This document shows, in pieces, positions 2,130-23,334 of a DNA stretch of 37,659 nt (the stretch's first letter is position 1; each line of letters starts with the position of its first letter). A program made the position numbers and the translations under genes. The notes below the pieces were generated by a model. That model worked only from the letters and a program-made list of their open reading frames with translations. It did not search any database and was not told where the DNA came from. Source of the stretch: a virus. The stretch lies in the IMG/VR virus record IMGVR_UViG_3300012668_000271. The stretch is one strand, 5' to 3'.

Positions 2130-2235
2130 AGTAAAATCCTTTGTACTTACCCATTAGGGTGTTTATGATGTTATATATTAAATTTAAAACTTTAAATGAA
2201 TACTTACAATAAAATTCTTTAATTAGTAATCAATA

Positions 2236-2264
2236 TTGACCATAATTAACGAATATGTTATATT
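2236..2264 (+). promoter_or_regulatory. sigma70-like promoter TTGACC-17-TATATT
   Basis: TTGACC at 2236-2241, a 17-nt spacer, TATATT at 2259-2264. ATG codons follow at 2265 and 2271, and no Shine-Dalgarno sequence is present. Confidence 0.55.
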
Positions 2265-2516
2265 ATGCTCATGGAAGAGATTGAAAAAACATATTTATCA
2301 GTTAACGATTTTGCTAAAAAATTAGGAAAGCATCCTTCAAGTATTCGAAGGGCAATAAAAAGCAATCGTATTAATGCTATAAGAATTGGTCACGGAAAAA
2401 AGGCAAGTTATAGCATACCTGTAAGTGAACTTCACCGAATAGGTGTAGTAGATCTTGAAGACATGATTAATATTATGGTTGAAAAAAAACTAAAAGAAAA
2501 AAACCAAAATGTCTGA
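2265..2516 (+). CDS. excisionase/MerR-type HTH (HTH_17-like) DNA-binding protein
   Basis: LSVNDFAKKLGKHPSSIRRAIKSNRINAIRIG fits the excisionase-family HTH pattern. The real start is probably ATG 2271, 6 nt after the -10 hexamer (leaderless). Confidence 0.7.
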   Translation: MLMEEIEKTYLSVNDFAKKLGKHPSSIRRAIKSNRINAIRIGHGKKASYSIPVSELHRIGVVDLEDMINIMVEKKLKEKNQNV

Positions 2517-2621
2517 TAAATTTTTTGTATTTAAGGAATTAAGTTACAAAGAAAGAAGATTGATGAATTTATAATTTTACTTAGAAAAAGATGGAAGCAT
2601 ATTTAAAAAAGGAAAGTATTA

Positions 2622-2756
2622 ATGAGCATATACCGATGCAAAAAATGCGATTGCACATGCGACGCAAATTATGACGGATGCAATGCGCATCCTAATGAGA
2701 CATTTGGAAATGTGTGTGATAAGTGTGACGAATTAATTTCAGAGGAGGAAAAATAA
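2622..2756 (+). CDS. small Cys-rich protein (44 aa), candidate
   Basis: AAGGAAAG RBS before the ATG. Product is MSIYRCKKCDCTCDANYDGCNAHPNETFGNVCDKCDELISEEEK. Its stop overlaps the next ATG (TAATG). Below the ORF-track size cutoff. Confidence 0.35.
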   Translation: MSIYRCKKCDCTCDANYDGCNAHPNETFGNVCDKCDELISEEEK

Positions 2757-2836
2757 TGAGTTGGCTAATGATATTTGCTATATGGTTTGGGTTGGCTATT
2801 TTTTTTCCCCCAAGTCCACCCGTTGAACCTTTTTAA
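2756..2836 (+). CDS. 26-aa hydrophobic peptide, candidate
   Basis: GAGGAGG sits 7 nt upstream of the ATG. Product is MSWLMIFAIWFGLAIFFPPSPPVEPF, a single membrane-span-like segment. Confidence 0.3.
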   Translation: MSWLMIFAIWFGLAIFFPPSPPVEPF

Positions 2837-2844
2837 AATTAATT

Positions 2845-4131: not shown

Positions 4132-5372
4132 GAAACTAACCTAAAGCCTTCTGGAAGTTCTTCAACTTCACTTTGATCTAATTCATAAGTTTGACCATCT
4201 GGTCCTATAACATCAATCATTTTTCCTGATAATTTCTTTGGTTCAGATTGATTTTCTAGTCCAAGAAATTCATCTTCTAATCTTTTTGTTTCATCTGAAA
4301 TTAATTCTGAAGCAATTTTATCAGCTTCTTCTTGAGCAACACCATCAAGTCCATATTTTTTATAAACTTGATCTAATGCTTGATCATAAAGATCGTCTAG
4401 AGAATAATTTATATCCATCATTCTTAGAATTTTCGATCTACCTTCTTGTGTATTTAAAAGGCCTGGAAATTGTTGCATGTATGATTGGAGATCAAAATTA
4501 GTGACTCTAGAACCAAATGTATCCTTAGCTCTAGTTTGAAATCTCGAAATGACTTTAGACCATTCTTGTGCTTGAGGGGATTTAAATCCTGCTACTTGTG
4601 CTGGTCCATAAAAATCATTCGTTTCAGGATTGATAAGCATTCTCTCAATTCCGTCAGGCATCTTACTATTTAATTGTGTTAATTTTTTAGTAGATAAAAC
4701 ATCCTGTTTTCTATTCTTTAACTTTTTCTTATTTTCTGTAAAAACAGGCACGTTTTCTTTTCTCCAATCTTTTCTAGTATCAGCCCATTCTTTAGGTGTA
4801 TATCCAGAAGGTCGATGAGAAAAATTAGGCCATTTGTAATCAGAAGAGATTTTATTATTTTTCATTTGAGGTTTGTTAGATTGATCGGTTTCTCCGAAAT
4901 CATTATGATCAGGAATTTGATTTTCTTGAGGATTTACTCCTGATAAAACTTCTTCTAAATTAATTCCTCTTTGGGAAGCATCGATCGCATGTTTTAATAA
5001 TTCAGTCCTTCCACCAACCGGCGATGATCTCCAAACATTTGCAAACTTTTCACCAAAATTATCTTTTATAATATTGAAATCTCTAGTTTCTATTTCATGA
5101 TTTCCTGATAATTCCGAAGCTTTATTTCTTTGTTGGATATTTCCTTCAAGCATCTTTTGTTGAAATTCTTTTGGCATATCCCTGGATTCTGGACCTAAAT
5201 ATTTTTCAATAGCTTGCTGTTGTTGCTGTTGTTTTTGATTTTCTTTCTCTTTATCTTGAAATTGCTGGTATTTATCTAAACCAGTCATTGCAGTCTGAAC
5301 ACTTTGTTGCATGCCAGAATTTATCCTCTCTGAAAAGGTTGGTTTTCTGTTTTCTTGTAGTAATGGTAACAT
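4128..5372 (-). CDS. virion internal/ejection-type protein (414 aa), function unassigned
   Basis: Long ORF in the same-strand operon with a Gln-rich N-terminus. Tightly packed with its neighbours. Confidence 0.6.
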   Translation of the reverse strand: MLPLLQENRKPTFSERINSGMQQSVQTAMTGLDKYQQFQDKEKENQKQQQQQQAIEKYLGPESRDMPKEFQQKMLEGNIQQRNKASELSGNHEIETRDFNIIKDNFGEKFANVWRSSPVGGRTELLKHAIDASQRGINLEEVLSGVNPQENQIPDHNDFGETDQSNKPQMKNNKISSDYKWPNFSHRPSGYTPKEWADTRKDWRKENVPVFTENKKKLKNRKQDVLSTKKLTQLNSKMPDGIERMLINPETNDFYGPAQVAGFKSPQAQEWSKVISRFQTRAKDTFGSRVTNFDLQSYMQQFPGLLNTQEGRSKILRMMDINYSLDDLYDQALDQVYKKYGLDGVAQEEADKIASELISDETKRLEDEFLGLENQSEPKKLSGKMIDVIGPDGQTYELDQSEVEELPEGFRLVS

Positions 5373-5381
5373 ATTATTCTC

Positions 5382-6164
5382 CTATCCGATTGAATTTCCG
5401 AAAGTTCCTAAACCACCCATATTGGTAGCTGAGTAGCTAGATCCTCCACCCATTCCACCCCATGAGCTTCCTCCACCCATTCCACCCATTCCACCACCGC
5501 CTCCATTATTACCACCCAAACCACCTAAAGATGAAAAGTTAGGCATACTGACTTGATTATTTCCACCACCCTTACCAGATAATCCAGAACCCATATTGTA
5601 ACCCATACCAGCGCCAGATATTGCACCCATTGGACCTCCTGCAAGAAATCCTCCAACACCACCTATTGCGCCACCTGCTAAACCACCCCAGTTAAAGCCT
5701 TCTTTCTGTTGTTTCTGCATGATGCCTTGGTCATAAGGTTTTTGCCCAAGCAATTGATTACTCATGCCCATAAGATCATTTATAGCCTGTCTCTGGAGCG
5801 TCTGTCTTCTTCCTGCTAGATCTTGAGCAAAATCAGAACTGGCTTGATTAGCTGAATTTTGGAATCCACTGCTTTTTCTTGAACCCGTTCCACCCATTCC
5901 ACTAAACCTTGAACCCATTTGACCTTGCATTTGAGAAAATTGTCTCATTGCAGGTTCTTCCATCTGATCAAATTGAGATTGATCGCCACTTGCTAATTTA
6001 GATAAATAACTTTCAGGTCCTACATGCGAAAAAGCCTGTTTAAATAAACCCATTTGCTCAGGTGTATAATTCTGCATTTGATATTGGCGGTATCCAGAAG
6101 GTAATTTATTACCAGCTTTTCCGTTAGGGCCCATCACGCCCGCACTTCCCATCATAGAATTCAT
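5382..6164 (-). CDS. Gly/Met-rich virion protein with a glycine-zipper segment (260 aa)
   Basis: GGLAGGAIGGVGGFLAGGPMGAISGAGMG followed by GGMGGMGGGSSWGGMGGG low-complexity sequence. Located among ejection-type genes. Confidence 0.6.
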   Translation of the reverse strand: MNSMMGSAGVMGPNGKAGNKLPSGYRQYQMQNYTPEQMGLFKQAFSHVGPESYLSKLASGDQSQFDQMEEPAMRQFSQMQGQMGSRFSGMGGTGSRKSSGFQNSANQASSDFAQDLAGRRQTLQRQAINDLMGMSNQLLGQKPYDQGIMQKQQKEGFNWGGLAGGAIGGVGGFLAGGPMGAISGAGMGYNMGSGLSGKGGGNNQVSMPNFSSLGGLGGNNGGGGGMGGMGGGSSWGGMGGGSSYSATNMGGLGTFGNSIG

Positions 6165-6174
6165 TTAAACCCCC

Positions 6175-6636
6175 TTAAGGCAAACTAAGCCATTCCAAAA
6201 CAATTTGTGCTTTAACGATTGTTGCAGCACCAACAAAAACGATATTAGTCGAAGTCAAATAAAAAGTTAACTGTCCGGCGATTCCTGCGCTATTGGAGAA
6301 AATAATTCCATTCCAGTTAGTGCCATCATAATAAACTCCCCAACATCGTGAGAAGTTGTAGATATTGCTAGTGCTTATATTATGTGGGATGCTCGCCGTA
6401 GTAGTAAAGACATATGCCTGTCTAAAAGTTTGCTGCTTTTGATTATTGACTAAGTACCATGCCTCACCTGTGATGGCTGGTCTTGTAGTTGGAAATATAC
6501 CGATTATCCTAGCATTTACAACATTGGCTGTATCTATATACGCTTTGCTAAGTTCAGTTGATAATTGCTTGGCATCTTCTGGAAAATCTCTTGATGTTCT
6601 GAGATAAGGTATTTGATTAACAATATTTGAACTCAT
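6175..6636 (-). CDS. hypothetical virion protein (153 aa)
   Basis: ORF whose start overlaps the upstream 984-aa gene by 4 nt (6633-6636). Confidence 0.6.
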   Translation of the reverse strand: MSSNIVNQIPYLRTSRDFPEDAKQLSTELSKAYIDTANVVNARIIGIFPTTRPAITGEAWYLVNNQKQQTFRQAYVFTTTASIPHNISTSNIYNFSRCWGVYYDGTNWNGIIFSNSAGIAGQLTFYLTSTNIVFVGAATIVKAQIVLEWLSLP

Positions 6637-9587
6637 GCCAAAACCATTGAAGGAGATACATCTAAAATAAATCCATGTAGTTCAATTTCTGAAAAAGCAT
6701 TTATTGCTGATTCTTGCATCAGAATGCCACCTGAAATATAAGGTGTAAAAGAAATGGAATTAACTCCTATCGTTACAGTAGTAGCATCGGATGCAATCAC
6801 ATTATAAACATTATTATTAAGTTGTGTCATACCTAAAACACCTTGAATAATGATAAGACTTCCATTCGGTAAAAGACCTTGTGAAGCACATGTAAGTATA
6901 CAATTAGTAGAATTACTTGCATTAGTAATAATAAAAGAAACACCATTTGTTTCTAAATCCCTAACCTGAGCATCTGACATCGTAAAGCCTAGTTGAACAG
7001 TATCACCAATTAATGAAGTATTAACTCTATGCCATATTTGAGACTGTGTATTTGCTGTTACAGACTGTATGTTAATGTTAGAAGGCGTTAATCCTAAATT
7101 AGTACTTTCAGGACATGTGTAAAGAACTGAGCTGTATATTAAAGAATTATTTAAAGATACAGCACTTGGTACAATAGTGCCAATATTATAAGGATTATTT
7201 GCATCTTGACTGAGATATATTTGTAAAGTTATCTGTGAATTAGGTGTAGAACTTAAAAGATACATCTGAGGACCAATTCTAGTCTTTCTTGCACTATCCC
7301 AACCTAAAGGGAATTGTTTTGTCTGAATAAATGGCACATAAATACGCGTGATAACTCCACCACCAAAATAAGTTCCTGTTGTAGGTACAACAGGTGCAAT
7401 CAATGTAAATGTATTTGCATTTGGTATACCGACTTGAAAAATATAACCATTTACCTGACCTGACAGTGTACCCTGTACATCTGTTATGATTATATAATCA
7501 CCTTCATTCAAACTATGGTTAGGGCTTGTCACTAGATTTGCAACAATGTTTTGAATTGCTATGGAAGTTCCTTCACCTGTTCCTATGCCTTTTATTAAAA
7601 CAAAACCTTGTTGATTTCCACCAATTATTTGTGGTTGTAATAAACTTGATTCTCCAGCATTCCAAGGATCATTCCATGCATTCCAAGTTGGATAAGTAAG
7701 TCCTACAGTATTCCATGTAAACCCTGTCTGTCTTTTGAATTGACCATAGGTAGTATAACTTTCTCTGAATATCGCCCAAGATTGATCTCTGTAATTATAT
7801 TGTAACGTTTGGTCTGGGAATGTATAAAAATCTTCATTGACAGGGTATGTGAAATAAATCCATTCATTTATATAATCTCGTTGCGCACAGACTCTTTCAA
7901 CGCCATTATTGGTTAAAGACATCTCAAACACTTCATCAGGTATATCTAAATCGAATCTAGAAGCAGAGGTTTGATTAGTCATAATAAATCCTCGATCTCC
8001 TCTTGTGAGGACACCTTCATTCATGACTATTCCTGAGAATGTGCTACTAGATCCTAATTCAGAATTTATAATATAGAAATTGAATGGGACGATGTCATCA
8101 CCGGTATAAACCATTTTAGCTTCTGCATTTCTAAAACCTAAAATAATGACGTCTTGGTTTGGATATGCAGTATTAATCGGTTGATCAATACCTACTGTTT
8201 GAAAACCTCCAAATCCAGTTGAATCTTCGAAAAAAGCTGATGGAGTTGCAGTTTGATTTACCGGTACAAGTAAAGGTGTTACTGTGGCAATTCTAGGGTC
8301 ATTTCCCGTACTTGTGTACGAACCTGTGTAGTAAGGCGTTCCATTTTGACTATAAATGACTGTATCTTGCAAATAAATTGGGTTACTAGATGATGATTGG
8401 ATCACCACACCGATAAAAACAAGCCGATCTTTAAAAGGTATAATCATTCGAGCACTAACTAAATAATAAATAGCAGGAGGCAAATCAGATATAGAAAATG
8501 CTTGTTGACTAAGTGGTGGCATGAAATTAACCCAACCGAATCCAGGCGAAAATCCAGGAGCCAAAGCACTTCCATTAGTAGGATCACCATCATACCAGCG
8601 AATGCAATCTTTGGTCTTATCTGATCTATTAGTTAAATATTGAGCTATTCCGTTACTAGTGTAGACTCCGCTCAATGTTGCATTTGGAAATTCTACAGTG
8701 ACGGTATTTGCATCAACAACAACAGTTACATAACCGGTTTGAAAATTAATTCCATTAATTCCTTTGACCTCATTTACAAATATAAAATCACCGACCACAA
8801 GTCCATGACCAGTAATTGTTAAATTTGTAATTGCAGGAGGACCACCAATACCCGTTATTGCTGTTATCGGTTTAAATTGCATACCTATATTTGTGATATT
8901 GAATGGAATATTTATACCATTCGTAACCCAAAAAGCTCCTTGAAAATTGGTCGACCAGAATTGCTGATAATTTTGACCATTCCAGGAAATTGTTGTCCAA
9001 GTTGATTTTTGAACATATCCGGGATATCCAACTGTAGCTGTTGCTATATTTTTATAAAAACTAACATCATAAGCTGAATAAGGTGTTGATGTGAGAATAT
9101 TATAAGCATATGTCGTATCAAAAGCTATAGTACTTGAGAATGAACCGGAAGTTGTGACATCTTCTTCAAGACCCATAACCGGCAGAGTAGGGTAATAAAA
9201 CACATTGGTTAATGCTACAGATCCTAAAATAATTAATACACCTGTTGATCTATTTAATACACCAGTTCCACTTAAACTATTAGTTAAAAGATTAACTGGA
9301 TTTGCTCCGCCTTGATCAATAAAAATATCTGTTCCAATAGTGAATGTGGATATACCGGAAATGATCGGTTGGGGGCTTATTGTAACTGTGAGATTACCTG
9401 AGACATCTGTAGTACCAAGAAAACGCTGTAAACGACATAATAATTGAGTTCCGCGCTTTCGTTTTATTCGTCCACGCCATTGATAAGAATTAATTAAAAC
9501 AGGAAAAGAATCATTGTCTATATTAAATGGAAGTCTATCATTTTTTAGACCTTTATCAATAGGTCCTACAGTAAGTTTTTGTCCCAT
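6633..9587 (-). CDS. large tail/baseplate-type virion protein (984 aa)
   Basis: Largest ORF in the window. Contains three copies of a G(D)xVxI...NG.Y.V...TF module. Single-nt overlap with the upstream gene at 9587. Confidence 0.65.
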   Translation of the reverse strand: MGQKLTVGPIDKGLKNDRLPFNIDNDSFPVLINSYQWRGRIKRKRGTQLLCRLQRFLGTTDVSGNLTVTISPQPIISGISTFTIGTDIFIDQGGANPVNLLTNSLSGTGVLNRSTGVLIILGSVALTNVFYYPTLPVMGLEEDVTTSGSFSSTIAFDTTYAYNILTSTPYSAYDVSFYKNIATATVGYPGYVQKSTWTTISWNGQNYQQFWSTNFQGAFWVTNGINIPFNITNIGMQFKPITAITGIGGPPAITNLTITGHGLVVGDFIFVNEVKGINGINFQTGYVTVVVDANTVTVEFPNATLSGVYTSNGIAQYLTNRSDKTKDCIRWYDGDPTNGSALAPGFSPGFGWVNFMPPLSQQAFSISDLPPAIYYLVSARMIIPFKDRLVFIGVVIQSSSSNPIYLQDTVIYSQNGTPYYTGSYTSTGNDPRIATVTPLLVPVNQTATPSAFFEDSTGFGGFQTVGIDQPINTAYPNQDVIILGFRNAEAKMVYTGDDIVPFNFYIINSELGSSSTFSGIVMNEGVLTRGDRGFIMTNQTSASRFDLDIPDEVFEMSLTNNGVERVCAQRDYINEWIYFTYPVNEDFYTFPDQTLQYNYRDQSWAIFRESYTTYGQFKRQTGFTWNTVGLTYPTWNAWNDPWNAGESSLLQPQIIGGNQQGFVLIKGIGTGEGTSIAIQNIVANLVTSPNHSLNEGDYIIITDVQGTLSGQVNGYIFQVGIPNANTFTLIAPVVPTTGTYFGGGVITRIYVPFIQTKQFPLGWDSARKTRIGPQMYLLSSTPNSQITLQIYLSQDANNPYNIGTIVPSAVSLNNSLIYSSVLYTCPESTNLGLTPSNINIQSVTANTQSQIWHRVNTSLIGDTVQLGFTMSDAQVRDLETNGVSFIITNASNSTNCILTCASQGLLPNGSLIIIQGVLGMTQLNNNVYNVIASDATTVTIGVNSISFTPYISGGILMQESAINAFSEIELHGFILDVSPSMVLA

Positions 9588-10165
9588 TAATTACCCAATG
9601 CCACCCAATAAAAACCATTATAAGCTGTTCCACCTGTATAATTATAAAAAAAACCACTCGCATTTATTGTTTTACCAACAGATAAAGTTTGAGCATTTGT
9701 AGTATTGCCCGCATTTATCAAAGTTGTTGTAACAACAAAACAAGCAGTAGGAAATGCTGGACTAAATGAAACAAGTATATTTGAATCTGAAACAAGAGGA
9801 GAAACCTTACCCCATTTTAATAATATCCCACCAGCTAGTGAAGTTGTACCATTTAATGGTGTTGCTGTTGTTGGTGAAGAAATGATAACTGTTGAACCTA
9901 ATGCATTTTGCCAAATTGGCCATGATTGTCCATTGACTATATTAGCATACATAGCAGCATCTGCACTACTTAATCCAGGTGCTGCCTCATTAATCAAATG
10001 GACATGTTTATGAAATCCACCAGGAGTTGAAGAAGAAAGATTAAAGTTATAATGATCAACAGCTAATAAAGAATCTACGGCATTAGTATTGATTGTCATT
10101 AAAGGTCTATCAGCTGAAGGATTATTAGCACCGGCCGGGATATTTAAATTATAATTGATCGTCAT
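9587..10165 (-). CDS. tail fibre-like protein (192 aa)
   Basis: ORF inside the tail module with an Asn/Thr/Ser-rich beta-type composition. Assigned by position only. Confidence 0.5.
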   Translation of the reverse strand: MTINYNLNIPAGANNPSADRPLMTINTNAVDSLLAVDHYNFNLSSSTPGGFHKHVHLINEAAPGLSSADAAMYANIVNGQSWPIWQNALGSTVIISSPTTATPLNGTTSLAGGILLKWGKVSPLVSDSNILVSFSPAFPTACFVVTTTLINAGNTTNAQTLSVGKTINASGFFYNYTGGTAYNGFYWVALGN

Positions 10166-10177
10166 GAAATTAATTCC

Positions 10178-11386
10178 TTAAAAAGTTGTTCCGCCCTGAT
10201 TAGATCCTGATTGCCCTGTATTTTGACTTTGACTATATATCGTTTGTGTTCTCGTTGAAGTCCATTGTCTTTGGCTTCTTTTCCAAACAAGCATTTCCTG
10301 TTCTTTGAATAAAGTTTCATAAAACATAAATTGCTCAATATCTCCTGTATCAGATAACAATTTTCTAGCAGCTCCTCGTGCGATGTATTCAGCCATATAA
10401 GCAAATGGAATAGCATTTGCTGTATTTAAAAAAGCTGAAGGAGAAAGATATGCCTCTAATTCAACTAAATATTGTTTATCCGGAGGATTACGAAGCGTTA
10501 ATGTGTTATTATAGAATAGAATAGCACGAGGCAAACCGCATTGAAAAAAGTGACACTGAGCACTTATGTTAACACCTGATGGTATTGAAGATGGAAAATA
10601 AAGATTAATGACAGAACCTGTCAGATAATTTATCGTATTTTGAGTCGTTGAATAAGGTGTTGGTAAAGATCCTCCATTTGGTAATGCAGTATAACCAAAT
10701 GGTGCGGTTCCAGGAGTCATTAACAACCCATAGTTAGGTGAACTTGTTAAAAACTGACCACTATCTTGCACAATGATATTAGTACCGTTATTATCATTAG
10801 AAGTGATGTAAACTGCTGGAATTATACTTGTAGAAGGGATACTAAGATTTAAATTAGTTCCTAATGGAGGATCAATATTTGCACCTGTTGCAATAATACC
10901 TGCCATATCCACATGTCCTCTCAAAATTGCTTGAATAGGTGGATTTAAAGGAGAATTATTTACTGGAGCAATAGGGAAAGAGAAAGTATAAGGTCCAGAT
11001 GTTCCATTACCAACCGCAACAACATTCATTTGCTGAACTACATTTGTCCAGCTATTAAAAAATAAACCTTTTTCAGTTTGAAATGAAACTGGAATTCCAT
11101 TGATATAAGCAGGCCCTAAAAAACCTTGATAAACAGGATATGATGCAATTTTTTGATTGCCGGATTCCGTTTGAACATCATACAATGGCATGTTATACTG
11201 ATCTATACCGGGACTTGTCTGAAACTGATACGTTGTTTTAAGATCAAATAATTGAATCCTTGCATCAACATCCATAATCCAAAAGCGATTAATATAATCG
11301 ATAATTAGATTGTCACTTAAGACAGCATTAGAAGGTGTTTTAACAATTCTTCTAATGTATGTTATTATATCACTTAATATATTCAT
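10178..11386 (-). CDS. virion structural protein (402 aa), function unassigned
   Basis: Long ORF in the structural operon, 12 nt upstream of the next gene. Confidence 0.6.
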   Translation of the reverse strand: MNILSDIITYIRRIVKTPSNAVLSDNLIIDYINRFWIMDVDARIQLFDLKTTYQFQTSPGIDQYNMPLYDVQTESGNQKIASYPVYQGFLGPAYINGIPVSFQTEKGLFFNSWTNVVQQMNVVAVGNGTSGPYTFSFPIAPVNNSPLNPPIQAILRGHVDMAGIIATGANIDPPLGTNLNLSIPSTSIIPAVYITSNDNNGTNIIVQDSGQFLTSSPNYGLLMTPGTAPFGYTALPNGGSLPTPYSTTQNTINYLTGSVINLYFPSSIPSGVNISAQCHFFQCGLPRAILFYNNTLTLRNPPDKQYLVELEAYLSPSAFLNTANAIPFAYMAEYIARGAARKLLSDTGDIEQFMFYETLFKEQEMLVWKRSQRQWTSTRTQTIYSQSQNTGQSGSNQGGTTF

Positions 11387-11394
11387 TTATTTTC

Positions 11395-11976
11395 CTAAAA
11401 ACTAGCACCCATGAAAACAGATTTTCTATCACTTACAGGTTCGGCATTTAATCTTTGAATTGTTTTATCTACTGCCATCGATCCATAATATTGACCCATA
11501 CCATCAGATGCAGTATTCGTATGTTGCTGCATGATTAAACGGTGGTATTTGCAACCTCTAATCTGCTCTGCTAAATATCTTGGTCCCCATATAGGTTTAT
11601 TAACTGGAACTTTCCAGTTTTCAGCCGGCATACCAGCAAAAGGTTTTGTCCACAGATCAATATCTTCACCGATGATCTCTATATTTTCAGCTGTGAAATG
11701 GACATATTCTTTCTTAAAATTAAATTCATCTCGATAGCTTTCATTAAATTTTTCTTTGCTTCCAATAGATCTAAATGGTTTTAAATATAAATCTTTAGAT
11801 TTTGCAATTTCAGATTGAGAAAGTTTTGTTTGTGGCTCCATTTCTTGTTTTGGTGCCGAATTCATACGATCTAATGTCATTTTCTGGACTTCTGAATCAA
11901 ATTCTTTAAATTGTTTATCCAACTTTTCTAATTCTTTTTCCGCTATCGAAGGATTATTTTTAATTTTTTCACTCAT
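11395..11976 (-). CDS. virion structural protein (193 aa), function unassigned
   Basis: ORF in the structural operon with a charged, coiled N-terminal half. Confidence 0.55.
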   Translation of the reverse strand: MSEKIKNNPSIAEKELEKLDKQFKEFDSEVQKMTLDRMNSAPKQEMEPQTKLSQSEIAKSKDLYLKPFRSIGSKEKFNESYRDEFNFKKEYVHFTAENIEIIGEDIDLWTKPFAGMPAENWKVPVNKPIWGPRYLAEQIRGCKYHRLIMQQHTNTASDGMGQYYGSMAVDKTIQRLNAEPVSDRKSVFMGASF

Positions 11977-11984
11977 ATTTACCT

Positions 11985-12416
11985 CTATAATGGACTTATG
12001 TTTAAAAAGCTTCCTGGTATGTAATTTAAAGTTGAATTTATACCATTATTGTTTGTCTGTCCAGTATTCACATCACCGATCGAGAATATTTGCGCAACTG
12101 TAGTTGATGAAGATGAAATATATGCATCAACATTTTGCGAAGAATTAATTCCTACTAATACTTGCGTACTTGTTGGGATGGATAATACATATCCTTGAGT
12201 CTCGTTCAATTGAATACAACCAAATGAAGATGGGATCAATAAACGCACCAACTGACCAATCACAAAATTATGTGCAACAGATGTGCTAATAGTCGTATTT
12301 ATTCCTAACGAAACTCCAGATATCACAAAAAGATTCGGTTGATAGAAATTTGATTGGATCGGAGGATTGGAATACAAAGGAATGGGATATGATACTACAC
12401 CTTTAAGAATCACCAT
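11985..12416 (-). CDS. virion protein carrying one HxFxxGQxV...GYV module (143 aa)
   Basis: SVAHNFVIGQLVRLLIP...ETQGYVLSIPTSTQVLVGIN resembles the modules in the 379-aa and 984-aa proteins. Confidence 0.55.
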   Translation of the reverse strand: MVILKGVVSYPIPLYSNPPIQSNFYQPNLFVISGVSLGINTTISTSVAHNFVIGQLVRLLIPSSFGCIQLNETQGYVLSIPTSTQVLVGINSSQNVDAYISSSSTTVAQIFSIGDVNTGQTNNNGINSTLNYIPGSFLNISPL

Positions 12417-12497
12417 AAAAACTTTCTTTTTAAAATTTTTTTACACAAATTTATTAAAAACACTCCTCTTTTTTAAGGAGGAGTGTTTTATCATTTA

Positions 12498-13637
12498 CTA
12501 TGAACCAATATCATGCATATATGCATGCCAGTACACAATATTCGTATTAGCAATCAAAGTTGCTATACCATCTACTGCTGCTAAACCAGCACCGATTGTA
12601 AAGCCTTGAGATGTGTTATTTACATACGCACCTATAACAGCAGGACCATTAATAGTACTGCTATCATTTTTTGAAGCTACTGAATATTGAGGTGCTGGAT
12701 ACAATTGTGATCCTGCAGAAATTTGCACTCCACCTGTATTCACATCACCTACTGCTACCACTTGAGGGAAGCTAAGACCAGGTACACTTGCGACAGTTTG
12801 ATTAACACTAAAGGCTGTAAAACCTACAGAATTAATATTAACAACAAATGTAAAGTTATCAGTAACAGATACAACATATCCATAGATCGGTGATCCTGGA
12901 ATAAGTATATTTGGTAATGAATTCAATGCTGTCGTTTTCCAAGCTTGCGGTACTCTAAATGCAATTTCTTGTCCTACCTGAAACTGATGATTACTAGTTG
13001 TAACCACAGTTGTTGTAGCTCCCAAAGTAAGAGCGCTTATAAACGCTGATCCAGGAAGATACAACCAAGGATAAAGAATTTTCTTTACAGTCGCGTTAGC
13101 TGGTGAGCCGCTTAATGCTGTATAATTACTTCCACTACTATCCCATTTAACTGTAAATGTATTAGCAGTTACTGCTGAAATAGTAAAAGGTATACCTGCC
13201 ATTTGCGGTTGACCAGTAGTTGTTGTCTGGAATAATCCATTCAACAAAACTGTATCACCAATTTGGTAACCGTGCGCTGTTACTGTAAATACAGTAGGGT
13301 TTGCAGCAGTCGAACTAACAATTTGCTTAGTTGGACCAAATTGAGTCAATAAACCTGCTGAAAAAGGATTTATTGCCTGCTGTGCTGCTGAGTTTGGTAT
13401 TGTATCAAACACGCTTGAAGTGCTAGATCCTGCATACAACTCAATCATTGTTGGATTATTAGAACCATCAAGCAACCTAGAATCCCACCAAGCTCTTGTA
13501 ACGCTATGGATAGCTGCTGTCTTAATGTTACTATAGTTCCATAACTCAACATAATCAGGTATAAAAGGTAAATTAATTACTGCACTTGTACCTGTTGCAA
13601 TAAAATTACCCTTCGCCATTCTTGAATATTCAGTCAT
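12498..13637 (-). CDS. virion protein directly downstream of the capsid gene (379 aa), possible decoration or head fibre
   Basis: ATG lies 1 nt after the capsid stop codon. Two HGYQIGDTV / HQFQVGQEI modules. The function is inferred from position only. Confidence 0.5.
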   Translation of the reverse strand: MTEYSRMAKGNFIATGTSAVINLPFIPDYVELWNYSNIKTAAIHSVTRAWWDSRLLDGSNNPTMIELYAGSSTSSVFDTIPNSAAQQAINPFSAGLLTQFGPTKQIVSSTAANPTVFTVTAHGYQIGDTVLLNGLFQTTTTGQPQMAGIPFTISAVTANTFTVKWDSSGSNYTALSGSPANATVKKILYPWLYLPGSAFISALTLGATTTVVTTSNHQFQVGQEIAFRVPQAWKTTALNSLPNILIPGSPIYGYVVSVTDNFTFVVNINSVGFTAFSVNQTVASVPGLSFPQVVAVGDVNTGGVQISAGSQLYPAPQYSVASKNDSSTINGPAVIGAYVNNTSQGFTIGAGLAAVDGIATLIANTNIVYWHAYMHDIGS

Positions 13638-13638
13638 T

Positions 13639-14187
13639 TTATACCCCCAAATTGCTTAAGCGTGTACTTAACAAATTACGGATAGCCGTATCTTGCGTAA
13701 TAGCTTGAGCTTGAGCAAATTTAACTGCCAAGGTTGCATTCTGAGCTAGCATACCAGAGTAATAAGGATCACGATAAATTAAATTCATCGAGAAACCATC
13801 CTGATTAATATGCGTAATAGCCTGTTTACCTAAAACTGTGTTGTAATATACGTCATTCAAAGTACCAACGTTATTTGCAACACTATTTCTTGCTACAGGT
13901 GCTTCCGAACTTGTCAAAATACGGATATTAAATATTGATCCATATTCACTTGCCAAAGCAGATGCATTCGTAGGATAGTTCCATTGTGAAAGGAATCCTG
14001 CACCCACTAAAGAATCAAAATCGGACTGAAGTTCAGTCGAACTAAGCATAAAATATGCTGAACGAACTGGACCTGTTCCAAATCTATCCATGCCTTCAAT
14101 ACCAGACATGAATTTATAAGCATTGTTACTATCAAGAGTTGTAGCAACTAATGAGAAGTCTGAGACTCCTAAGTTAGTTGGGTTATA
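13639..14187 (-). CDS. major capsid protein, exon 3
   Basis: YNPTNLGVSDFSLVATTLD...LSSTELQSDF...EYGSIFNIRILTSSEAP fits the C-terminal two-thirds of HK97-fold capsid proteins. The exon start is proposed after the G at 14188, supported by a P10-like pairing of AUAAC with GUUAU. Confidence 0.75.
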   Translation of the reverse strand, partial: YNPTNLGVSDFSLVATTLDSNNAYKFMSGIEGMDRFGTGPVRSAYFMLSSTELQSDFDSLVGAGFLSQWNYPTNASALASEYGSIFNIRILTSSEAPVARNSVANNVGTLNDVYYNTVLGKQAITHINQDGFSMNLIYRDPYYSGMLAQNATLAVKFAQAQAITQDTAIRNLLSTRLSNLGV

Positions 14188-14201
14188 CATTCTATTACTT
14201 G

Positions 14202-14230
14202 TTGACTTAAACGCTTGATCTTGTTACAAT
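14202..14230 (+). promoter_or_regulatory. sigma70-like promoter TTGACT-17-TACAAT for the homing endonuclease
   Basis: TTGACT at 14202-14207, a 17-nt spacer, TACAAT at 14225-14230. The ATG follows 6 nt later at 14237 with no SD. The promoter lies entirely inside intron 2. Confidence 0.6.
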
Positions 14231-14236
14231 AATAAC

Positions 14237-15148
14237 ATGATCGATAAATACACTTTAGCTTACACAGCTGGTTACACCGATGGAGATGGATGTTTTCATA
14301 TAAGAAAAACAATCCGAAAATCTACTGGTATAGCCAAATATTCTTGTTCTTTCATCATCTCTTCTACAGATACTGATATTATTGAGTTCCTTGTAAAGAC
14401 TTTCCCAGGTATTCGACGCATAGTGCATAATGGAAAAAGATCTTCTATATGGAAACCTCAACATCATTTTGTGATTAGAGGAAAAAAATCCATTAAATTT
14501 GTTCAGCAAATTTTGCCATTTCTTATTGAAAAACGAGAAGAAGCTGAAATTTACTGCAAATTCATTAAATCTTTTTCTCGTGAAGAAAAAGAGATTCTGA
14601 TGAATCGACTTAAGGAAGTTAAAAATGAATGTAATTTGGTCAAAAAATCTCATAAGAATAATCTTCAAGAGTGTATCTTGACTTTGTGCCCTAGTGATTT
14701 GGATTTTGCTTATTTCGCAGGTTTTATAGATGCTGAATGTGCACTTGGTGTATTTAGGTACAACTCTAAAAATCGCGATAACTTTATTTACAAAATCCTT
14801 CTTCAATGTGGCAATACCAAACTTCCCATTTTTAAATGGCTTCTTGAGCGATTTGGAGGACAAGTTCATTTTGTAGAACGTCGTTCCAAAAACATTAATC
14901 ATCGAGATTTTTTGACTTACAGAATTTCCAGTAAATCTCTCGGTGAGTTGCTTCCAAGAATATTTCCTTATATCAAACACAAAAAAATTGTTTGTGTTGA
15001 ACTGATGAAATTTTATGAAACAACGACTCCATTGCAAGGAAACATAAGCAGAAATTCTCCAAAATTTAAAGAATTCTATGCTGATATACTCACTATGAGG
15101 GACACTATTTTTCATAAAGTTCATATTCTTAATCGTAAAGGTATTTAA
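14237..15148 (+). CDS. double-motif LAGLIDADG homing endonuclease
   Basis: Two LAGLIDADG motifs: LAYTAGYTDGDGCFHI and FAYFAGFIDAECALGV. 303 aa. Confidence 0.9.
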   Translation: MIDKYTLAYTAGYTDGDGCFHIRKTIRKSTGIAKYSCSFIISSTDTDIIEFLVKTFPGIRRIVHNGKRSSIWKPQHHFVIRGKKSIKFVQQILPFLIEKREEAEIYCKFIKSFSREEKEILMNRLKEVKNECNLVKKSHKNNLQECILTLCPSDLDFAYFAGFIDAECALGVFRYNSKNRDNFIYKILLQCGNTKLPIFKWLLERFGGQVHFVERRSKNINHRDFLTYRISSKSLGELLPRIFPYIKHKKIVCVELMKFYETTTPLQGNISRNSPKFKEFYADILTMRDTIFHKVHILNRKGI

Positions 15149-15337
15149 ACATTTAAGCGGGTGGTCATTTCTGCCACCTCTCATAGTTTCCTATGAGATT
15201 AGACTATCGCTTCACCTTTCGGTGTCTGACCGCTTTAGTCGTTCACGGTCCCTTTCGGGTTCCGCCTTGTTGTCTTCACCATGACGTGGTAAGAGTTCCA
15301 AGTCGATTAGGTCTGATTTTACAACGGCAATAACTCT

Positions 15338-15706
15338 ACCGTTGGATCCACCACCTGCGTTAATCTGAGAAGCTGCTGATACGATATAATCTCGTAAAAT
15401 CAAATCCTCTGCTTGACGCATGGCTACGGCAAGTCTTTCTGAAACCCAAGCGAGAACTCCCTCTTGGTCTTGCAAAATGACTTGTTCGTTGATTATGCAG
15501 CCAGTCTATAAGCATAATCTAGGATCATTTCGGCACTGGCAATGCAACCGAAAAACGCCATCTGAGCATCAATTATATCCCTTTGTGGTACCTGTGCAGG
15601 TGGATCAATACCCGCATTACCTAATTGTACAGTAGGTGGCTGTATCGCACGAGGGCGCATAAATCTGCAAGTAGTACCGCCATTAGCTGGCATTGATACT
15701 TTGTCA
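15338..15706 (-). CDS. major capsid protein, exon 2 (contains a 1-nt frame break near 15496-15507 as assembled)
   Basis: DKVSMPANGGTTCRFMRPRAIQPPTVQLGNAGIDPP...AFFG continues in another frame as ...QEGVLAWVSERLAVAMRQAEDLILRDYIVSAASQINAGGGSNG. The 5' boundary could instead be 15724. Confidence 0.7.
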
Positions 15707-15977
15707 CACACAGTAATGTAATTCCTTGTTGTTAAGGTACTTAAGTACCTATCCGATCATTTCTGTCGAATTCTCTATGTTTCCATAGAGTTCAGAGCAC
15801 CGCATCCACTTAATTAAGTGGTCTCTTCGCTTGCTACGTTCACGCTGCAAAGCTTTCGCCGGCTTGCGCCTTGTTGCCTTCAACATTACTTGGTCAGGGA
15901 TTCAAGTCCATCAGAAGAGATTTTACAACGACGAATATATTGCACAAAACATTTGTGCATGATATAGTTAAACTGCC
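15707..15977 (-). mobile_element. group I-like intron 1 of the capsid gene (ORF-less, about 253-271 nt)
   Basis: P1 pairing: exon CAACGAU (15984-15978) with GUCGUUG (15932-15926). Shares blocks with intron 2 (CGUUGUAAAAUC, UGAAGGCAACAAGGCG, CGUGAACG, CAGAAAUGA). Hairpins CUCUAUG-GAAA-CAUAGAG and GGUACUUAAGUACC. Confidence 0.75.
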
Positions 15978-16063
15978 ATCGTTGGGGTAGGAACATAAAG
16001 CATAGCTGGAGCTAAACTTTGTAGGATCATGGGACCCAGGTTCCCTGTAGTCGTAATAGACAT
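15978..16063 (-). CDS. major capsid protein, exon 1 (28 codons plus 2 nt)
   Basis: AAAGGAAT RBS, then ATG at 16063. Encodes MSITTTGNLGPMILQSLAPAMLYVPTPT. The unspliced frame stops 3 codons later. Confidence 0.7.
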
Positions 16064-16104: not shown

Positions 16105-16134
16105 GTGGACGAAGACGTAATACGTCCGTTTTTT
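16105..16134 (+). terminator. hairpin plus T6, plus-strand intrinsic terminator candidate
   Basis: GGACG (16107-16111) pairs with CGTCC (16123-16127) and is followed by GTTTTTT. It lies just beyond the capsid start codon, on the strand antisense to the capsid gene. Confidence 0.4.
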
Positions 16135-16224
16135 AACATATCGATTATGGATGCGAACCCACTACGCGAAACATGATAACAGTCATGTAAACTGAAATTT
16201 AACATATATCATAGTAAATATTTT

Positions 16225-16887
16225 ATGGCACCTAGAAAAACACATGGCATGTGTAAAACAAAAGAATATCAATGTTGGAGAGCATTTAAAAATAGATGTA
16301 TGAATGAAAAAAATGTTCAATTTAAAGATTATGGCGGTCGTGGAATAACTGTGAGTAATGAATGGTTAGAATTTGTGAACTTTTATTCTGACATGGGAAA
16401 TTGTCCTGATGGGTTTGAAATTGATCGTATCGATAATAATAAAGGATATTGCAAAAAAAATTGCAGATGGACTACTAAGAAAATAAATTCTAGGAATAGA
16501 AGATCCACAAAAAAACATAAAATTAATTCTGAAGAAATAGTCCAACAAGTTCTTTTAGAGAAGATTGGATGGACAAAAAATCAATTTAGATGGTTTAAAG
16601 ATCAATATGGCATTGATTGGATTTTAGAAAACTTCAAGAAAGGAACTTTGCCAGAAATAACTAATATACCTGTTGATAAAGATGAAATTATTGGAAAGAC
16701 AATGGGAAAATGGACAGTTCTAAAATTCGTTTCATATAAAAGATGTATAGGAAATACTTATTTATGTAGATGCCATTGTGGGCATGAAAAAGAAGTTAAC
16801 GGATATTATCTTAGATCTGGAAAAAGCACTCAATGCCGCAAATGTGCTTATCAAAAACAAGAGAATAAACCAAATCCAAAAAAATAA
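16225..16887 (+). CDS. free-standing HNH-like (IDRID...NCRW family) endonuclease-type protein
   Basis: KEYQCWRAFKNRC...YGGRGITV...FEIDRIDNNKGYCKKNCRWTT plus a C-terminal Cys cluster CRCHCG...CRKC. Opposite strand to the surrounding late genes. Confidence 0.65.
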   Translation: MAPRKTHGMCKTKEYQCWRAFKNRCMNEKNVQFKDYGGRGITVSNEWLEFVNFYSDMGNCPDGFEIDRIDNNKGYCKKNCRWTTKKINSRNRRSTKKHKINSEEIVQQVLLEKIGWTKNQFRWFKDQYGIDWILENFKKGTLPEITNIPVDKDEIIGKTMGKWTVLKFVSYKRCIGNTYLCRCHCGHEKEVNGYYLRSGKSTQCRKCAYQKQENKPNPKK

Positions 16888-21424: not shown

Positions 21425-22018
21425 TTAACTTTTAAAAATTGCTCTTAAACGTATTCCGCAATCCTTTGAACAGTATTTATTTTTTGCATATTTATTGCTC
21501 ATGAATTTAATTCCACAACGACCGCATACTTTCTCTACATCATCAATTCCTGAGTTTCTACGCCATTTGCTTTTACATGCATTAGAGCAGAATTCTTGAT
21601 GATACATCTTGGTTTCTGCTACTTTTTGACAAACTTTGCAAATTATTTTTATAGGTTCTTTATTAATCCAAGTTAAAATCCCGTGAGCTTTATGCCAAGC
21701 TAAACCTTCTTCACTTGCGTGCCATGCTTTAGTTAATGGGCGAATTTTTTCGCAAAGTAATCTAGATCTTTCTCTGTTTTCTTCCGTGTAATGATGACTT
21801 ATATGTCTAGAAGCTTCTATCAGTTCAATGTTTTCAATCCTATTATCAGATTTATTTTCATTCTTATGATGGATATGATAACCAATTGGTATTTTCCCGT
21901 GTAAACTAATCCACACCCATCTATGTGCTCTAATACGAGGATAATCAGTTGATATCCAATAACCTGTTTTTTTGTCTTGGTAAAACAGTCGACCGAAATG
22001 TTCTTGATGTGTTATCAT
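21425..22018 (-). CDS. HNH endonuclease with C-terminal zinc-ribbon repeats
   Basis: HIHHKNENKSDNRIENIELIEASRHISHH (H-N-H signature), then CKVCQK...FCSNACKSKW and CGRCG...YCSKDCG. Confidence 0.85.
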   Translation of the reverse strand: MITHQEHFGRLFYQDKKTGYWISTDYPRIRAHRWVWISLHGKIPIGYHIHHKNENKSDNRIENIELIEASRHISHHYTEENRERSRLLCEKIRPLTKAWHASEEGLAWHKAHGILTWINKEPIKIICKVCQKVAETKMYHQEFCSNACKSKWRRNSGIDDVEKVCGRCGIKFMSNKYAKNKYCSKDCGIRLRAIFKS

Positions 22019-22050
22019 GTATCATATGGTATCACCACTTGAATTTTATC

Positions 22051-23334
22051 TCAAAAGGAACTTTTGAAGCGATTATTTCTATAATCATCAGGATTATGCT
22101 TGTAAGGATCGTATGAGGATGGCTTGTGAGTGAAGATTGCGTAGCGGAGGGAATCGCAACAATGGTCTTCGGTCTTCATAGGCTCATCATAACCTTTCTT
22201 AGCTGCCTTAGAATCCCATACATAAGATTCAATTTCACGTATGGTATTGACGCATTCGCTACATATCAATAGCTTGCCATTTCTAAGAAAAGTAGAAAGA
22301 TGCTGTATACCGTTAAGAACATCATTATTAGCGTGAGTCGCATGCATACCTTTCTTTCTTAACTCTAGTTGAAATGATTCTGCAGATGGATCTAGATATA
22401 TATTCTTAACTGAATAGGGTTCTAAGAACGCTTGCACATCATCTGCAAACTCAGAATTAACTTTCTGTCTACCTTTCTTCTTAGGATCCCAGTAATACTC
22501 TTTCTCTACCCACATTTGCACACCTTGCTGGGTGTACTTACCAGTGGATACGCCAATAAGCAGGCAGCAAAATGGGTTAGCTGTGCCGTAATCAATGCCA
22601 GCAATCCAATATTCAGCGGCACGCGGTGGTCTATCTACTACATGGATCTTTCTGTCGAAGAAATCGAATATGGCACCTTCAGCCATAACCCATAAACCAA
22701 GCACATTACGCTTATAGAACAGACCTGTAGCGCTATTTTTAATGCGATCTTTATAATGCTTCGGAAGGAATGTGTTATCATCTAATTCAAAATGTAAAGC
22801 ATAGTAATTCGGATCACCTTCTGCAGCTTTATCTATCCATTGCTTGCACTTATGGTTAGGATGAGATGGGTTCATAGCAGCGAAACCTTTGCTATGATTC
22901 TTTCTTAAGCGTGTGTCGATCATGTCTATAACGCTATCGGGGTATAACGTCATCTCATCGCATAGCATTAATGAAGCTGTCAATCCCTGAAAGTTACCAA
23001 TACTTCCCTCATCTTTTGCACCAAGAATGGTAATGGTTTTATCTTTGAAATAAAGCTTCTTTCCCGACCATGTGCAAAAAGGCTTATATAATGCTAATAC
23101 TGAATCATCAGGAGCCTCGACTATCAACCGTACCACATTACGATAAGCTGTGTCGAACGTATGACCTACAATGAATATATCTGAATCTGGACATTCATCA
23201 ACAGCGTGCATGAAACCAAATGTCGTACAAACAGTTTTTCCAGTGGATACAGCACCATGCGCTAGATTCCAATGACGGAAACAATTCGTTAAAAATTCTA
23301 GTTGCTTTGATGCGAAAGGATTTTGCATAATCAC
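22051..23334 (-). CDS. terL: terminase large subunit
   Basis: Walker A-like GAVSTGKT, a downstream LMLCDEM motif, and a C-terminal nuclease-type region with WIAGIDYG and EDHCCDSLRYA. Confidence 0.85.
   Translation of the reverse strand: MIMQNPFASKQLEFLTNCFRHWNLAHGAVSTGKTVCTTFGFMHAVDECPDSDIFIVGHTFDTAYRNVVRLIVEAPDDSVLALYKPFCTWSGKKLYFKDKTITILGAKDEGSIGNFQGLTASLMLCDEMTLYPDSVIDMIDTRLRKNHSKGFAAMNPSHPNHKCKQWIDKAAEGDPNYYALHFELDDNTFLPKHYKDRIKNSATGLFYKRNVLGLWVMAEGAIFDFFDRKIHVVDRPPRAAEYWIAGIDYGTANPFCCLLIGVSTGKYTQQGVQMWVEKEYYWDPKKKGRQKVNSEFADDVQAFLEPYSVKNIYLDPSAESFQLELRKKGMHATHANNDVLNGIQHLSTFLRNGKLLICSECVNTIREIESYVWDSKAAKKGYDEPMKTEDHCCDSLRYAIFTHKPSSYDPYKHNPDDYRNNRFKSSF

Follow-up and report, generated by a model that had tools for sequence, protein, structure and literature searches.

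Antisense LAGLIDADG gene in a putative group I intron of a phage capsid gene: a fixed family layout with a conserved promoter geometry and a stop-free mirror frame

In phage T4, the endonuclease genes of the td (I-TevI), nrdD (I-TevII) and nrdB (I-TevIII) introns have their own regulatory elements (Edgell, Gibb and Belfort 2010, PMC2988022). In the nuclear ribosomal DNA (rDNA) of Didymium iridis, the I-DirII gene lies antisense within its group I intron and has an RNA polymerase II promoter of its own (PMC3073962), and nuclear L2066 rDNA introns harbour both sense and antisense genes encoding His-Cys box endonucleases (PMC9548176). Among phages, the capsid intron of the mycobacteriophage LittleE carries a LAGLIDADG-type gene, gp14, on the bottom strand (PMC3706429; GenBank JF937101), and splicing of this intron has been shown by reverse transcription-PCR and N-terminal sequencing (Pope et al. 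2013, PMC3706429). The analysis reported here concerns the IMG/VR virus record IMGVR_UViG_3300012668_000271, a stretch of DNA of 37,659 nucleotides (nt) that is called the window below, in which the major capsid gene, on the minus strand, is interrupted by a putative group I intron (intron 2) whose LAGLIDADG homing-endonuclease gene reads on the plus strand.

The endonuclease genes of the T4 introns are co-oriented with their host genes, and those of the organellar I-OnuI group are sense-oriented in familiar cases. The best explanation overall for the locus, to which a probability of about 0.72 is given, is a mobile group I intron that carries a self-contained antisense endonuclease cassette, together with a mirror frame that would be translated on the capsid strand. 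An earlier reading of the window (the original prediction) had placed a 303-codon, double-motif LAGLIDADG open reading frame (ORF) at 14237-15148 (plus strand), opposite to the capsid exons and the ribozyme, and had described a promoter of its own, TTGACT-17-TACAAT, inside the intron at 14202-14230. The ORF is confirmed by the ORF list, Pfam and motif conservation, the coordinates and junctions of intron 2 are exact by restoration of the capsid ORF, and the promoter sequence is present. Two features had been missed: the leaderless geometry of the gene and a stop-free mirror frame on the capsid strand. The features of the intron and of its cassette are the following.

14188-15337, minus strand: intron 2, a predicted group I intron with a length of 1150 nt, preceded by GGU at the end of the 5' exon and terminating in …AGAAUG; covariance model match (206 bits) at 15157-15345
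14237-15148, plus strand: double-motif monomeric LAGLIDADG homing-endonuclease gene, 303 codons, antisense to the intron, Pfam PF00961
14202-14230, plus strand: predicted sigma-70-type promoter, TTGACT-17-(TGt)TACAAT, with the -10 ending 6 nt before the ATG
14255-15184, minus strand: mirror ORF, 309 codons, whose codons line up exactly with those of the endonuclease gene and whose ATG is located in the 3' arm of P9
15160-15337, minus strand: ribozyme core, from the intron alignment and covariation
15344-15338 (exon) with 15328-15322, minus strand: helix P1
15316-15310 with 15231-15225, minus strand: helix P3
15302-15299 with 15269-15266, minus strand: helix P4
15294-15287 with 15281-15273, minus strand: helix P5
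15265-15257 with 15252-15245, minus strand: helix P6
15240-15236 with 15206-15202, minus strand: helix P7
15224-15221 with 15216-15213, minus strand: helix P8
15197-15191 with 15186-15180, minus strand: helix P9
15178-15174 with 15164-15160, minus strand: helix P9.1
15151-15157, minus strand: 5' arm of P9.2, CUUAAAU, closing the ORF-bearing loop, with compensatory changes in relatives
14206-14212, minus strand: 3' arm of P9.2, GUUUAAG, overlapping on the plus strand the -35 hexamer together with the first part of the spacer of the promoter
14188-14236, minus strand: 3' tail of intron 2, which includes the conserved segment UUUAAGUCAACAAGUAAUAGA and, at 14188, the terminal G

The protein of 303 amino acids (aa) matches the Pfam family LAGLIDADG_1 (PF00961, E=7.7e-8), and 193 homologs of it were found. 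Its two motifs, TAGYTDGDG and FAGFIDAEC, include the acidic residues D17 and E167, both invariant in 30 homologs. The AlphaFold2 model (predicted local distance difference test, 92.2; predicted template modelling score, 0.90) consists of two alpha-beta-beta-alpha-beta-beta-alpha domains in one chain, and the top Foldseek matches are single-chain I-CreI, mMsoI (I-MsoI) and I-OnuI, with E-values of 1e-15 to 1e-12 and template modelling (TM) scores of 0.6-0.72. The ORF is under purifying selection: the ratio of nonsynonymous to synonymous substitution rates (dN/dS) is 0.18-0.23 against two relatives. Truncated copies were found in only two loci (L070 and L073), so that a decay of the ORF in relatives, which the original prediction had named as a possible refutation, is not what is observed. 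The presumed role of the enzyme is the cutting of intron-less capsid alleles. Such alleles exist (L204), with a conserved sequence across the insertion point, and the comparison with them that had been proposed defines a candidate target site.

The antisense layout is not a peculiarity of the window. Related loci were recovered from metagenomes (81 loci, with 64 distinct full-length endonuclease genes); they are not phylogenetically independent and all counts based on them overstate the number of independent events. In 81 of the 81 loci, the endonuclease ORF is antisense within an N4-gp56-type capsid gene, all exons of which are on the opposite strand. This architecture occurs at at least six capsid insertion sites (117/118, 144/145, 163/164, about 263, 281-283 and 295), on dozens of independent contigs of 35-42 kb. 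Antisense orientation is thus the fixed architecture of the whole endonuclease family in uncultured phages. At site 144/145, which is that of the window, and at site 163/164, about 185-210 nt of ribozyme are located 5' of the ORF and the 3' tail is mostly 45-63 nt long; at site 117/118, the ORF is found in a 5' loop, with 60-90 nt before it and 165-190 nt after it. Furthermore, in two loci, a further intron of the capsid gene carries a distant LAGLIDADG gene (24-26% identity) in sense orientation, which provides a natural control. The original prediction had presented the layout as unusual. The backwards orientation is real, but the case is less unprecedented than this implied, given LittleE and I-DirII.

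From its structure, its covariation and the exact restoration of the capsid ORF, we infer that intron 2 is a genuine group I intron and that it is spliced. P1 pairs the exon sequence CAACGGU with GCCGUUG and places the last U of the exon in a U·G wobble, and its compensatory changes in relatives include CAACAGU/GCUGUUG, AACGCU/GGCGUU and AAUGGU/GCCAUU. The intron ends …AGAAUG before the exon sequence UAUAAC, P10 being formed by intron GUUAU with exon AUAAC. The terminal G is found in all aligned introns except that of L041. This alignment (A3) gathers 14 introns, namely 13 introns from site 144 and intron 1 of the window. RNAalifold recovers from it P1, P3, P4, P5, P6, P8, P9 and P9.1, to which P7 was added as a pseudoknot; P2 is absent from the fold of intron 2. 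Over the 48 pairs, 93.9% of the cells of the alignment are paired, versus 35-44% when the partners are slid, and compensatory double changes affect 30 pairs; none of 500 shuffles reaches the observed values. P7 itself covaries (GACUA/UAGUC versus GAGCA/UGCUC). A custom covariance model built from the alignment (R1) has exactly two strong matches in the window, one of 206 bits at 15157-15345 and one of 161 bits at 15748-15985, each of them on the minus strand.

The core ends at 15160 and is followed by the covarying P9.2 hairpin; therefore, the ORF fills the terminal loop of a peripheral 3' hairpin. The original prediction had closed this loop by pairing CUUAAA (15157-15152) with UUUAAG (14211-14206). 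The stem comprises 7 bp (15157-15151 with 14212-14206) and is kept with compensatory changes in nearly all relatives, with variants such as CUUAUAU/AUAUAAG, CUUAAGA/UCUUAAG, CUUUAGC/GCUAAAG and CUUAAAG/CUUUAAG. The ribozyme reads on the minus strand and the ORF, in the P9.2 loop, on the opposite strand. Intron 1 has no ORF and carries, as had been pointed out, only the hairpin GGUACUUAAGUACC (15749-15736) where intron 2 has P9.2 and the ORF.

Taken singly, the promoter of the window is not above chance, since a scan found 17 promoter-like sites in 6 kb versus 24 expected. Its geometry is conserved in the family: 51 of the 69 distinct upstream regions match the consensus with a -10 ending 4-9 nt before the ATG (2.8% for shuffles), a match being defined as at least 9 of 12 positions of TTGACA-(16-18)-TATAAT, the sigma-70 consensus. 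The distance from the -10 to the ATG is 6-7 nt in 45 of these 51 regions, and most of the low-scoring regions have an alternative in-frame ATG two codons off. The -35 hexamer is doubly constrained, as it shares positions with both the 3' arm of P9.2 and the conserved 3' tail. The -10 is located in the loop, outside the conserved helices, in a sequence that is otherwise free, and TAnnAT is nevertheless kept there, often with TGn. The class inserted at site 117 keeps the same -35/-10/ATG geometry in a wholly different flank (…CUGCGGGUCTTGACT…). No Shine-Dalgarno sequence precedes the ATG of the endonuclease gene, where there is no room for one; 16 of the 29 other genes of the window have one. 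With the usual 7-nt distance between the -10 and the start, transcription is predicted to begin at the A of the ATG, and this putative conserved sigma-70 promoter would therefore produce a leaderless mRNA. No other plus-strand gene is found upstream of the endonuclease gene for 14 kb.

The second feature that had been missed lies on the capsid strand. In the register of the mirror ORF, stops are the complements of the codons TTA, CTA and TCA. The endonuclease gene of the window contains a single such codon, codon 7 (TTA), whose mirror is the stop of the mirror ORF, whereas the other genes of the window contain 21 per 300 codons and use TTA for 49% of their leucine codons and TCA for 31% of their serine codons. 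Among the 64 distinct antisense genes, the number of stops per gene averages 0.66 in the mirror frame, as compared with 18 and 33.5 in the two remaining antisense frames. TTA and CTA together account for 34 of the 1553 pooled leucine codons and TCA for 8 of the 1172 serine codons, and 40 of these 42 residual codons are within the first 14 or the last 20 codons of the gene. By comparison, 195 background ORFs from the same loci have a median of 13.3 such codons per 300, only 1% of them having two or fewer. The other NNA codons (ATA, ACA, GCA, CCA and GTA) are used normally in the antisense endonuclease genes. The two sense-oriented LAGLIDADG genes found in the same capsid genes contain 13 and 22 TTA, CTA or TCA codons; two further antisense genes, belonging to other subfamilies, contain 2 and 0. 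The same test applied to LittleE is uninformative (2 stops versus 7 and 11, at 58% GC).

The first ATG of the open stretch usually mirrors the histidine codon CAT in the conserved C-terminal motif K(V/I)HxLNxKG, and GAGG or AAGG, arising from an Asn-Leu codon pair, precedes it in 34 of 61 loci. The frame evolves neutrally as a protein (dN/dS of 0.74-0.98), and its product has no Pfam match. In about 24 of 61 loci, it does not stop close to the start codon of the endonuclease gene but continues, still in frame, across the intron tail and the downstream capsid exon as far as the capsid stop; such loci are found at site 144 (L006, L009, L012, L014, L017, L023, L024, L027, L030, L036, L039, L041 and L042) and at site 117 (L049, L053, L062, L064, L069, L071 and L080), where the run includes about 180 nt of ribozyme. 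This run-on is commoner than phase chance suggests. Entry by read-through from the exon was considered and rejected, as ribosomes would first meet TGA (15214-15212) and TAG (15193-15191), and the phase varies among loci. Since only a selection that reads the frame can give such a pattern of stops, we infer that the loop is translated by ribosomes on the capsid pre-mRNA. Most plausibly, this would serve to maintain the coupling between transcription and translation and to prevent polarity of the Rho type, or decay, ahead of exon 3 and the late genes beyond it.

A further observation concerns the P9.1 region (15160-15178, minus strand). Its loop CAGAAAUGA and the preceding GAGAGG are nearly invariant across divergent introns, including intron 1. 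Its GAAAUGAUC part recurs in a 41-nt insert of the capsid gene described below. This segment also contains an AUG located 8 nt after GAGG, which is the start of the mirror ORF in 11 loci. It may be a tertiary-contact loop, a ribosome-binding site, or both.

These data would fit the following mechanism. On the capsid strand, a compact ribozyme (P1, P3-P9.1) followed by the long hairpin P9.2 would splice after U15338 and G14188, restoring the capsid mRNA. The terminal loop of P9.2 holds the opposite-strand cassette, with its extended -10 in the loop. Host RNA polymerase would start at or beside the A of the ATG and yield a leaderless endonuclease mRNA; with its own promoter and a leaderless start, expression would require neither the late capsid promoter nor translation of the pre-mRNA. 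During co-infection, the endonuclease would cut intron-less alleles at the conserved site …GGATCYAACGG/NGATAACCCAAC…, the intron-less junction of L204, GGTGGATCTAACGGAGATAACCCAACTAAC, being a candidate target allele, and recombination by the Erf and exonuclease functions of the phage would then copy the intron into the cut allele. The backwards gene would leave about 0.9 kb of non-coding RNA in the capsid pre-mRNA, and the purge of TTA, CTA and TCA provides a stop-free mirror frame with its own ATG across the loop. The product of this frame would be irrelevant, its translation guarding exon 3 and the downstream late genes from polarity or decay. The uncoupling of endonuclease expression from late capsid expression and the conflict between convergent transcripts, both suggested by the original prediction, may be consequences of this layout.

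It is unlikely that the mirror frame is an untranslated by-product of codon or amino-acid bias in the endonuclease gene, although codon composition is reported to yield long antiparallel ORFs in general (bioRxiv 10.1101/724807), the start codon and Shine-Dalgarno motif of the mirror frame are not strictly conserved, and its protein has no family match. Indeed, the depletion is limited to the three codons whose complements are stops, other NNA codons being normal, and it affects a gene whose neighbours in the window use TTA and TCA abundantly (49% and 31% of the Leu and Ser codons). Sense-oriented LAGLIDADG genes are undepleted (13 and 22), the residual codons cluster at both gene ends, and only a frame-aware selection separates the mirror frame from the other two (0.66 stops versus 18 and 33.5). 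The mirror ORF could also be a real overlapping gene with a functional product, for instance a cofactor of splicing, a maturase or a protein fused to the capsid protein. All 64 distinct genes keep the frame open, with a usable ATG, and about 24 of 61 loci extend it to the capsid stop; a functional product is nonetheless very improbable, as the mirror dN/dS is 0.74-0.98, divergence is high at the synonymous sites of the endonuclease gene (dS of 0.64-0.85), Pfam gives no match, and the loci differ in where the frame starts and in its phase with respect to the exons.

On the plus strand, the ORF might be a silent or decaying passenger, its promoter-like sequence being only the complement of structured intron RNA. 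The overlap of the -35 hexamer with P9.2 and the conserved 3' tail, the lack of regional enrichment in promoter-like sites (17 versus 24 expected) and the truncated copies in L070 and L073 would agree with this. It is quite improbable, however, given a dN/dS of about 0.2 and the invariance of the catalytic D and E across 30-64 homologs. Furthermore, the -10 is still kept 6-7 nt from the ATG in a loop outside the conserved helices, the geometry recurs in the site-117 class with unrelated flanks, and the absence of any upstream plus-strand gene for 14 kb means that a maintained ORF needs its own promoter. Finally, it is hardly credible that the interruptions are something other than RNA introns, such as inteins, assembly chimeras, or signs of a defective element whose capsid gene is dead. 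The lack of a group I match in Rfam and the origin of the contig in a metagenome bin would agree with this, but the exon frame hits stop codons inside each insert, which excludes inteins, covariation backs the group I fold, the same architecture is present on dozens of independent 35-42 kb contigs, and exact removal restores a conserved protein. Some observations do weigh against a mobile intron with an autonomous antisense cassette and a translated mirror frame. The position of the mirror start varies and a Shine-Dalgarno-like motif is present in only 34 of 61 loci. The capsid-sense RNA is not notably C-rich across the gene, so that the Rho rationale is not specifically supported and represents one option among others. 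The -35 segment is also conserved on the RNA side and conservation of the promoter could be partly structural, and a Bacteroidota host, one of the contradictory labels mentioned below, would not use this promoter type. A conserved terminator for the plus-strand transcript was not found (2 of 53 loci). Likewise, the Rfam group I model RF00028 has no match in the window, either at the gathering threshold or at E<=10, which is regarded as reflecting the limited sensitivity of the model towards a compact intron without P2 and not as evidence against group I membership.

The capsid gene (16063-13639, minus strand) encodes a major capsid protein of the N4-gp56 type and is made of the following pieces.

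15978-16063, minus strand: capsid exon 1, from alignment to contiguous homologs and to the intron-less allele L204
15725-15977, minus strand: intron 1, 253 nt, a predicted ORF-less sibling group I intron; covariance model match (161 bits) at 15748-15985; junction PTPTM/NYITV
15547-15724, minus strand: capsid exon 2a, from alignment to contiguous homologs and to L204
15506-15546, minus strand: insert of 41 nt with group I splice-site hallmarks, without catalytic core
15338-15505, minus strand: capsid exon 2b (…TGCIINEQ…GGSNG), whose final 7 nt pair with the guide sequence of intron 2 to give P1
13639-14187, minus strand: capsid exon 3 (YNPTNLG…LGV, stop), in which nt +2 to +6 (AUAAC) can pair with intron GUUAU (P10)

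Excision of 15977-15725, 15546-15506 and 15337-14188 produces an uninterrupted ORF of 981 nt (326 codons), 87-92% identical to contiguous homologs of 313-342 aa (most of them 322-330 aa), and the resulting junctions match the consensus (PTPTM/NYITV, FFG/TGCIINEQ and GGSNG/YNPTNLG). The database contains 944 homologs of this capsid type. The best 120 are contiguous, 313-342 aa long and 81-88% identical, and many contiguous homologs come from contigs of 35-42 kb. Many relatives have several introns per capsid gene, at positions 29, 88/89, about 92-104, 117/118, 144/145, 163/164, 215/216 and about 263-295. Some hold two endonuclease genes per capsid gene, those in sense orientation being rarer than antisense ones; the loci include L001 (2499-3302, plus strand), L043 (5788-6711, plus strand), L035 (6291-5374, minus strand) and L065 (5548-4784, minus strand).

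The 41-nt insert, UGCAUUGCCAGUGCCGAAAUGAUCCUAGAUUAUGCUUAUAG, is located between capsid codons G88 and T89 (15506-15546, minus strand) and disrupts the reading frame; removal of exactly 41 nt restores the consensus FFG/TGC. The 5' exon ends with U and the insert with G, as in a group I intron, and there is no P3-P9 core. A P1 can form between GCCGAAA and exon UUUCGGU, including a U·G pair, and a P10 between the adjacent GCCAGU and the first 6 nt of the 3' exon, ACUGGC; in addition, GAUUAUGC pairs with exon positions +8 to +15. An insert is found at the same site in three other phage contigs (L001, L002/L082 and L083, 4143-4260). Two of them are again 41 nt long with a variable middle, and that of L083 measures 65 nt because its P1 loop contains a hairpin of 24 nt. 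At the synonymous exon positions that take part in the pairings of the insert, the intron-less allele L204 has a different sequence. The minimum free energy fold recovers P1 and the 3' helix, with a z-score of only -1.0. A metagenome scan with a 14-mer from the insert gave only chance matches outside capsid genes. The insert may be a mini group I intron that lacks a core of its own and relies on the ribozyme cores of its sibling introns for splicing in trans. A ribosomal bypass of the T4 gene 60 type fits less well: GGU is followed by UGC, AUA, UGU or AGU, with no stop after the take-off, and landing on GGC would delete the conserved T89 and G90, both of which are kept by exact removal of 41 nt. 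The composite proposal that the locus is a two-strand coding unit (a leaderless LAGLIDADG gene plus a spacer ORF shielding the late operon until splicing) and that the 41-nt insert is spliced in trans is a tentative one, with somewhat less than even chances of being right as a whole.

The window is a whole metagenomic contig of 37,659 bp (NCBI WGS LDNP01) from a low-GC, uncultured, podovirus-like phage that encodes a P22-type portal, a large terminase subunit, Erf, an exonuclease and ParA/ParB-like proteins. Among the proteins of the window, there is no match to a phage RNA polymerase, and the window has no tRNA. From 39 to 16063, nearly all genes are carried by the minus strand. Immediately upstream of the capsid gene, a free-standing endonuclease gene of the HNH/AP2 type (16225-16887, plus strand; PHROG 374, E=1e-48) runs against the late-gene flow, without depletion in TTA, CTA and TCA (6 in 220 codons). 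A terminator-like hairpin (plus strand, 16114-16136) lies between this gene and the capsid start; considered as a possible end of the endonuclease transcript, it appears incidental, since only 2 of 53 relatives have such a site. Elsewhere, the region of the large terminase subunit (21425-23334, minus strand) consists of two ORFs, the first of 427 aa with a GTG start and the second, separate from it, of 197 aa, and the portal ORF starts with TTG; the custom intron model has no match in the terminase/portal region 21425-23334. A weak match of this model at 29746-29874 (minus strand; 10.9 bits, E=0.06) is probably due to chance. Searches of a collection of isolate phages, by blastn and tblastn with the capsid region, the capsid protein and the endonuclease protein, gave 0 matches; the lineage is uncultured and without an annotated relative in the collection searched. 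The host cannot be called from the metagenome-assembled genome bins that hold related contigs, as their taxon labels contradict each other (Nitrosopumilaceae, Bacteroidota, Nitrospiraceae, three Chlamydiia-type bins, Methanobacterium, Patescibacteria and others).

Should translation of the mirror frame take place, the passage of ribosomes over intron RNA would be a selectable trait in bacteria, and the locus would link intron mobility, transcription-translation coupling and the evolution of overlapping frames. A two-strand coding unit, if true, would represent a means, not described before, by which a mobile intron lowers the cost to its host. The depletion of TTA, CTA and TCA could serve as a simple signature of antisense genes embedded in translated or co-translated RNA, and the family supplies dozens of new monomeric LAGLIDADG enzymes with deducible natural targets.

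With LittleE, the window shares a phage major capsid gene, a (probable) group I intron and a LAGLIDADG-type ORF on the opposite strand. However, LittleE gp14 resembles I-CreI, has a single motif and an HNH-related tail and is 177 aa long, whereas the window encodes a 303-aa double-motif monomer; LittleE is part of the phage collection, in which a tblastn search with the latter found nothing at E<=1e-5. LittleE also infects a high-GC actinobacterial host, and no analysis of a promoter, leaderless start or mirror frame was reported for it. Like I-DirII, the gene of the window is antisense to the ribozyme, and it would likewise be expressed from its own promoter, independently of host-gene transcription. 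The I-DirII and L2066 genes differ in that they belong to the His-Cys box family and reside in eukaryotic nuclear rRNA genes, and expression of I-DirII involves an RNA polymerase II promoter, a spliceosomal intron and a poly(A) tail. As an rRNA host gene is untranslated and offers no translational coupling, a mirror frame is not expected in such genes.

The T4 introns are also phage group I introns in which the endonuclease gene is looped out of a peripheral helix, with homing through double-strand-break repair and phage recombination functions. Their enzymes, in contrast, belong to the GIY-YIG or HNH families, and translation on the pre-mRNA must be delayed for splicing to occur; in the window, the gene has the reverse orientation, and what occupies the loop on the sense RNA is a mirror frame without function. 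The predicted fold, with two domains in one chain and one acidic residue per LAGLIDADG helix, resembles those of I-OnuI, I-SmaMI, I-PanMI and single-chain I-CreI/I-MsoI (PDB 3qqy, 4lox, 5esp, 3mxa and 3fd2), although these monomeric or single-chain meganucleases, which are encoded in organellar introns, have only 12-18% sequence identity to the protein of the window. Antisense orientation in itself is therefore not new, LittleE gp14 and I-DirII being precedents. The earlier cases are isolated, whereas this layout is fixed in a large and diverse family, at at least six sites of a single essential and very highly expressed gene. It is accompanied by two conserved adaptations: a promoter placed for what would be a leaderless mRNA, and the removal of the codons that put stops on the strand of the host gene. 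Relative to the literature searched, what appears to be new is this family-wide fixation, together with the leaderless promoter geometry and the purge of the mirror frame.

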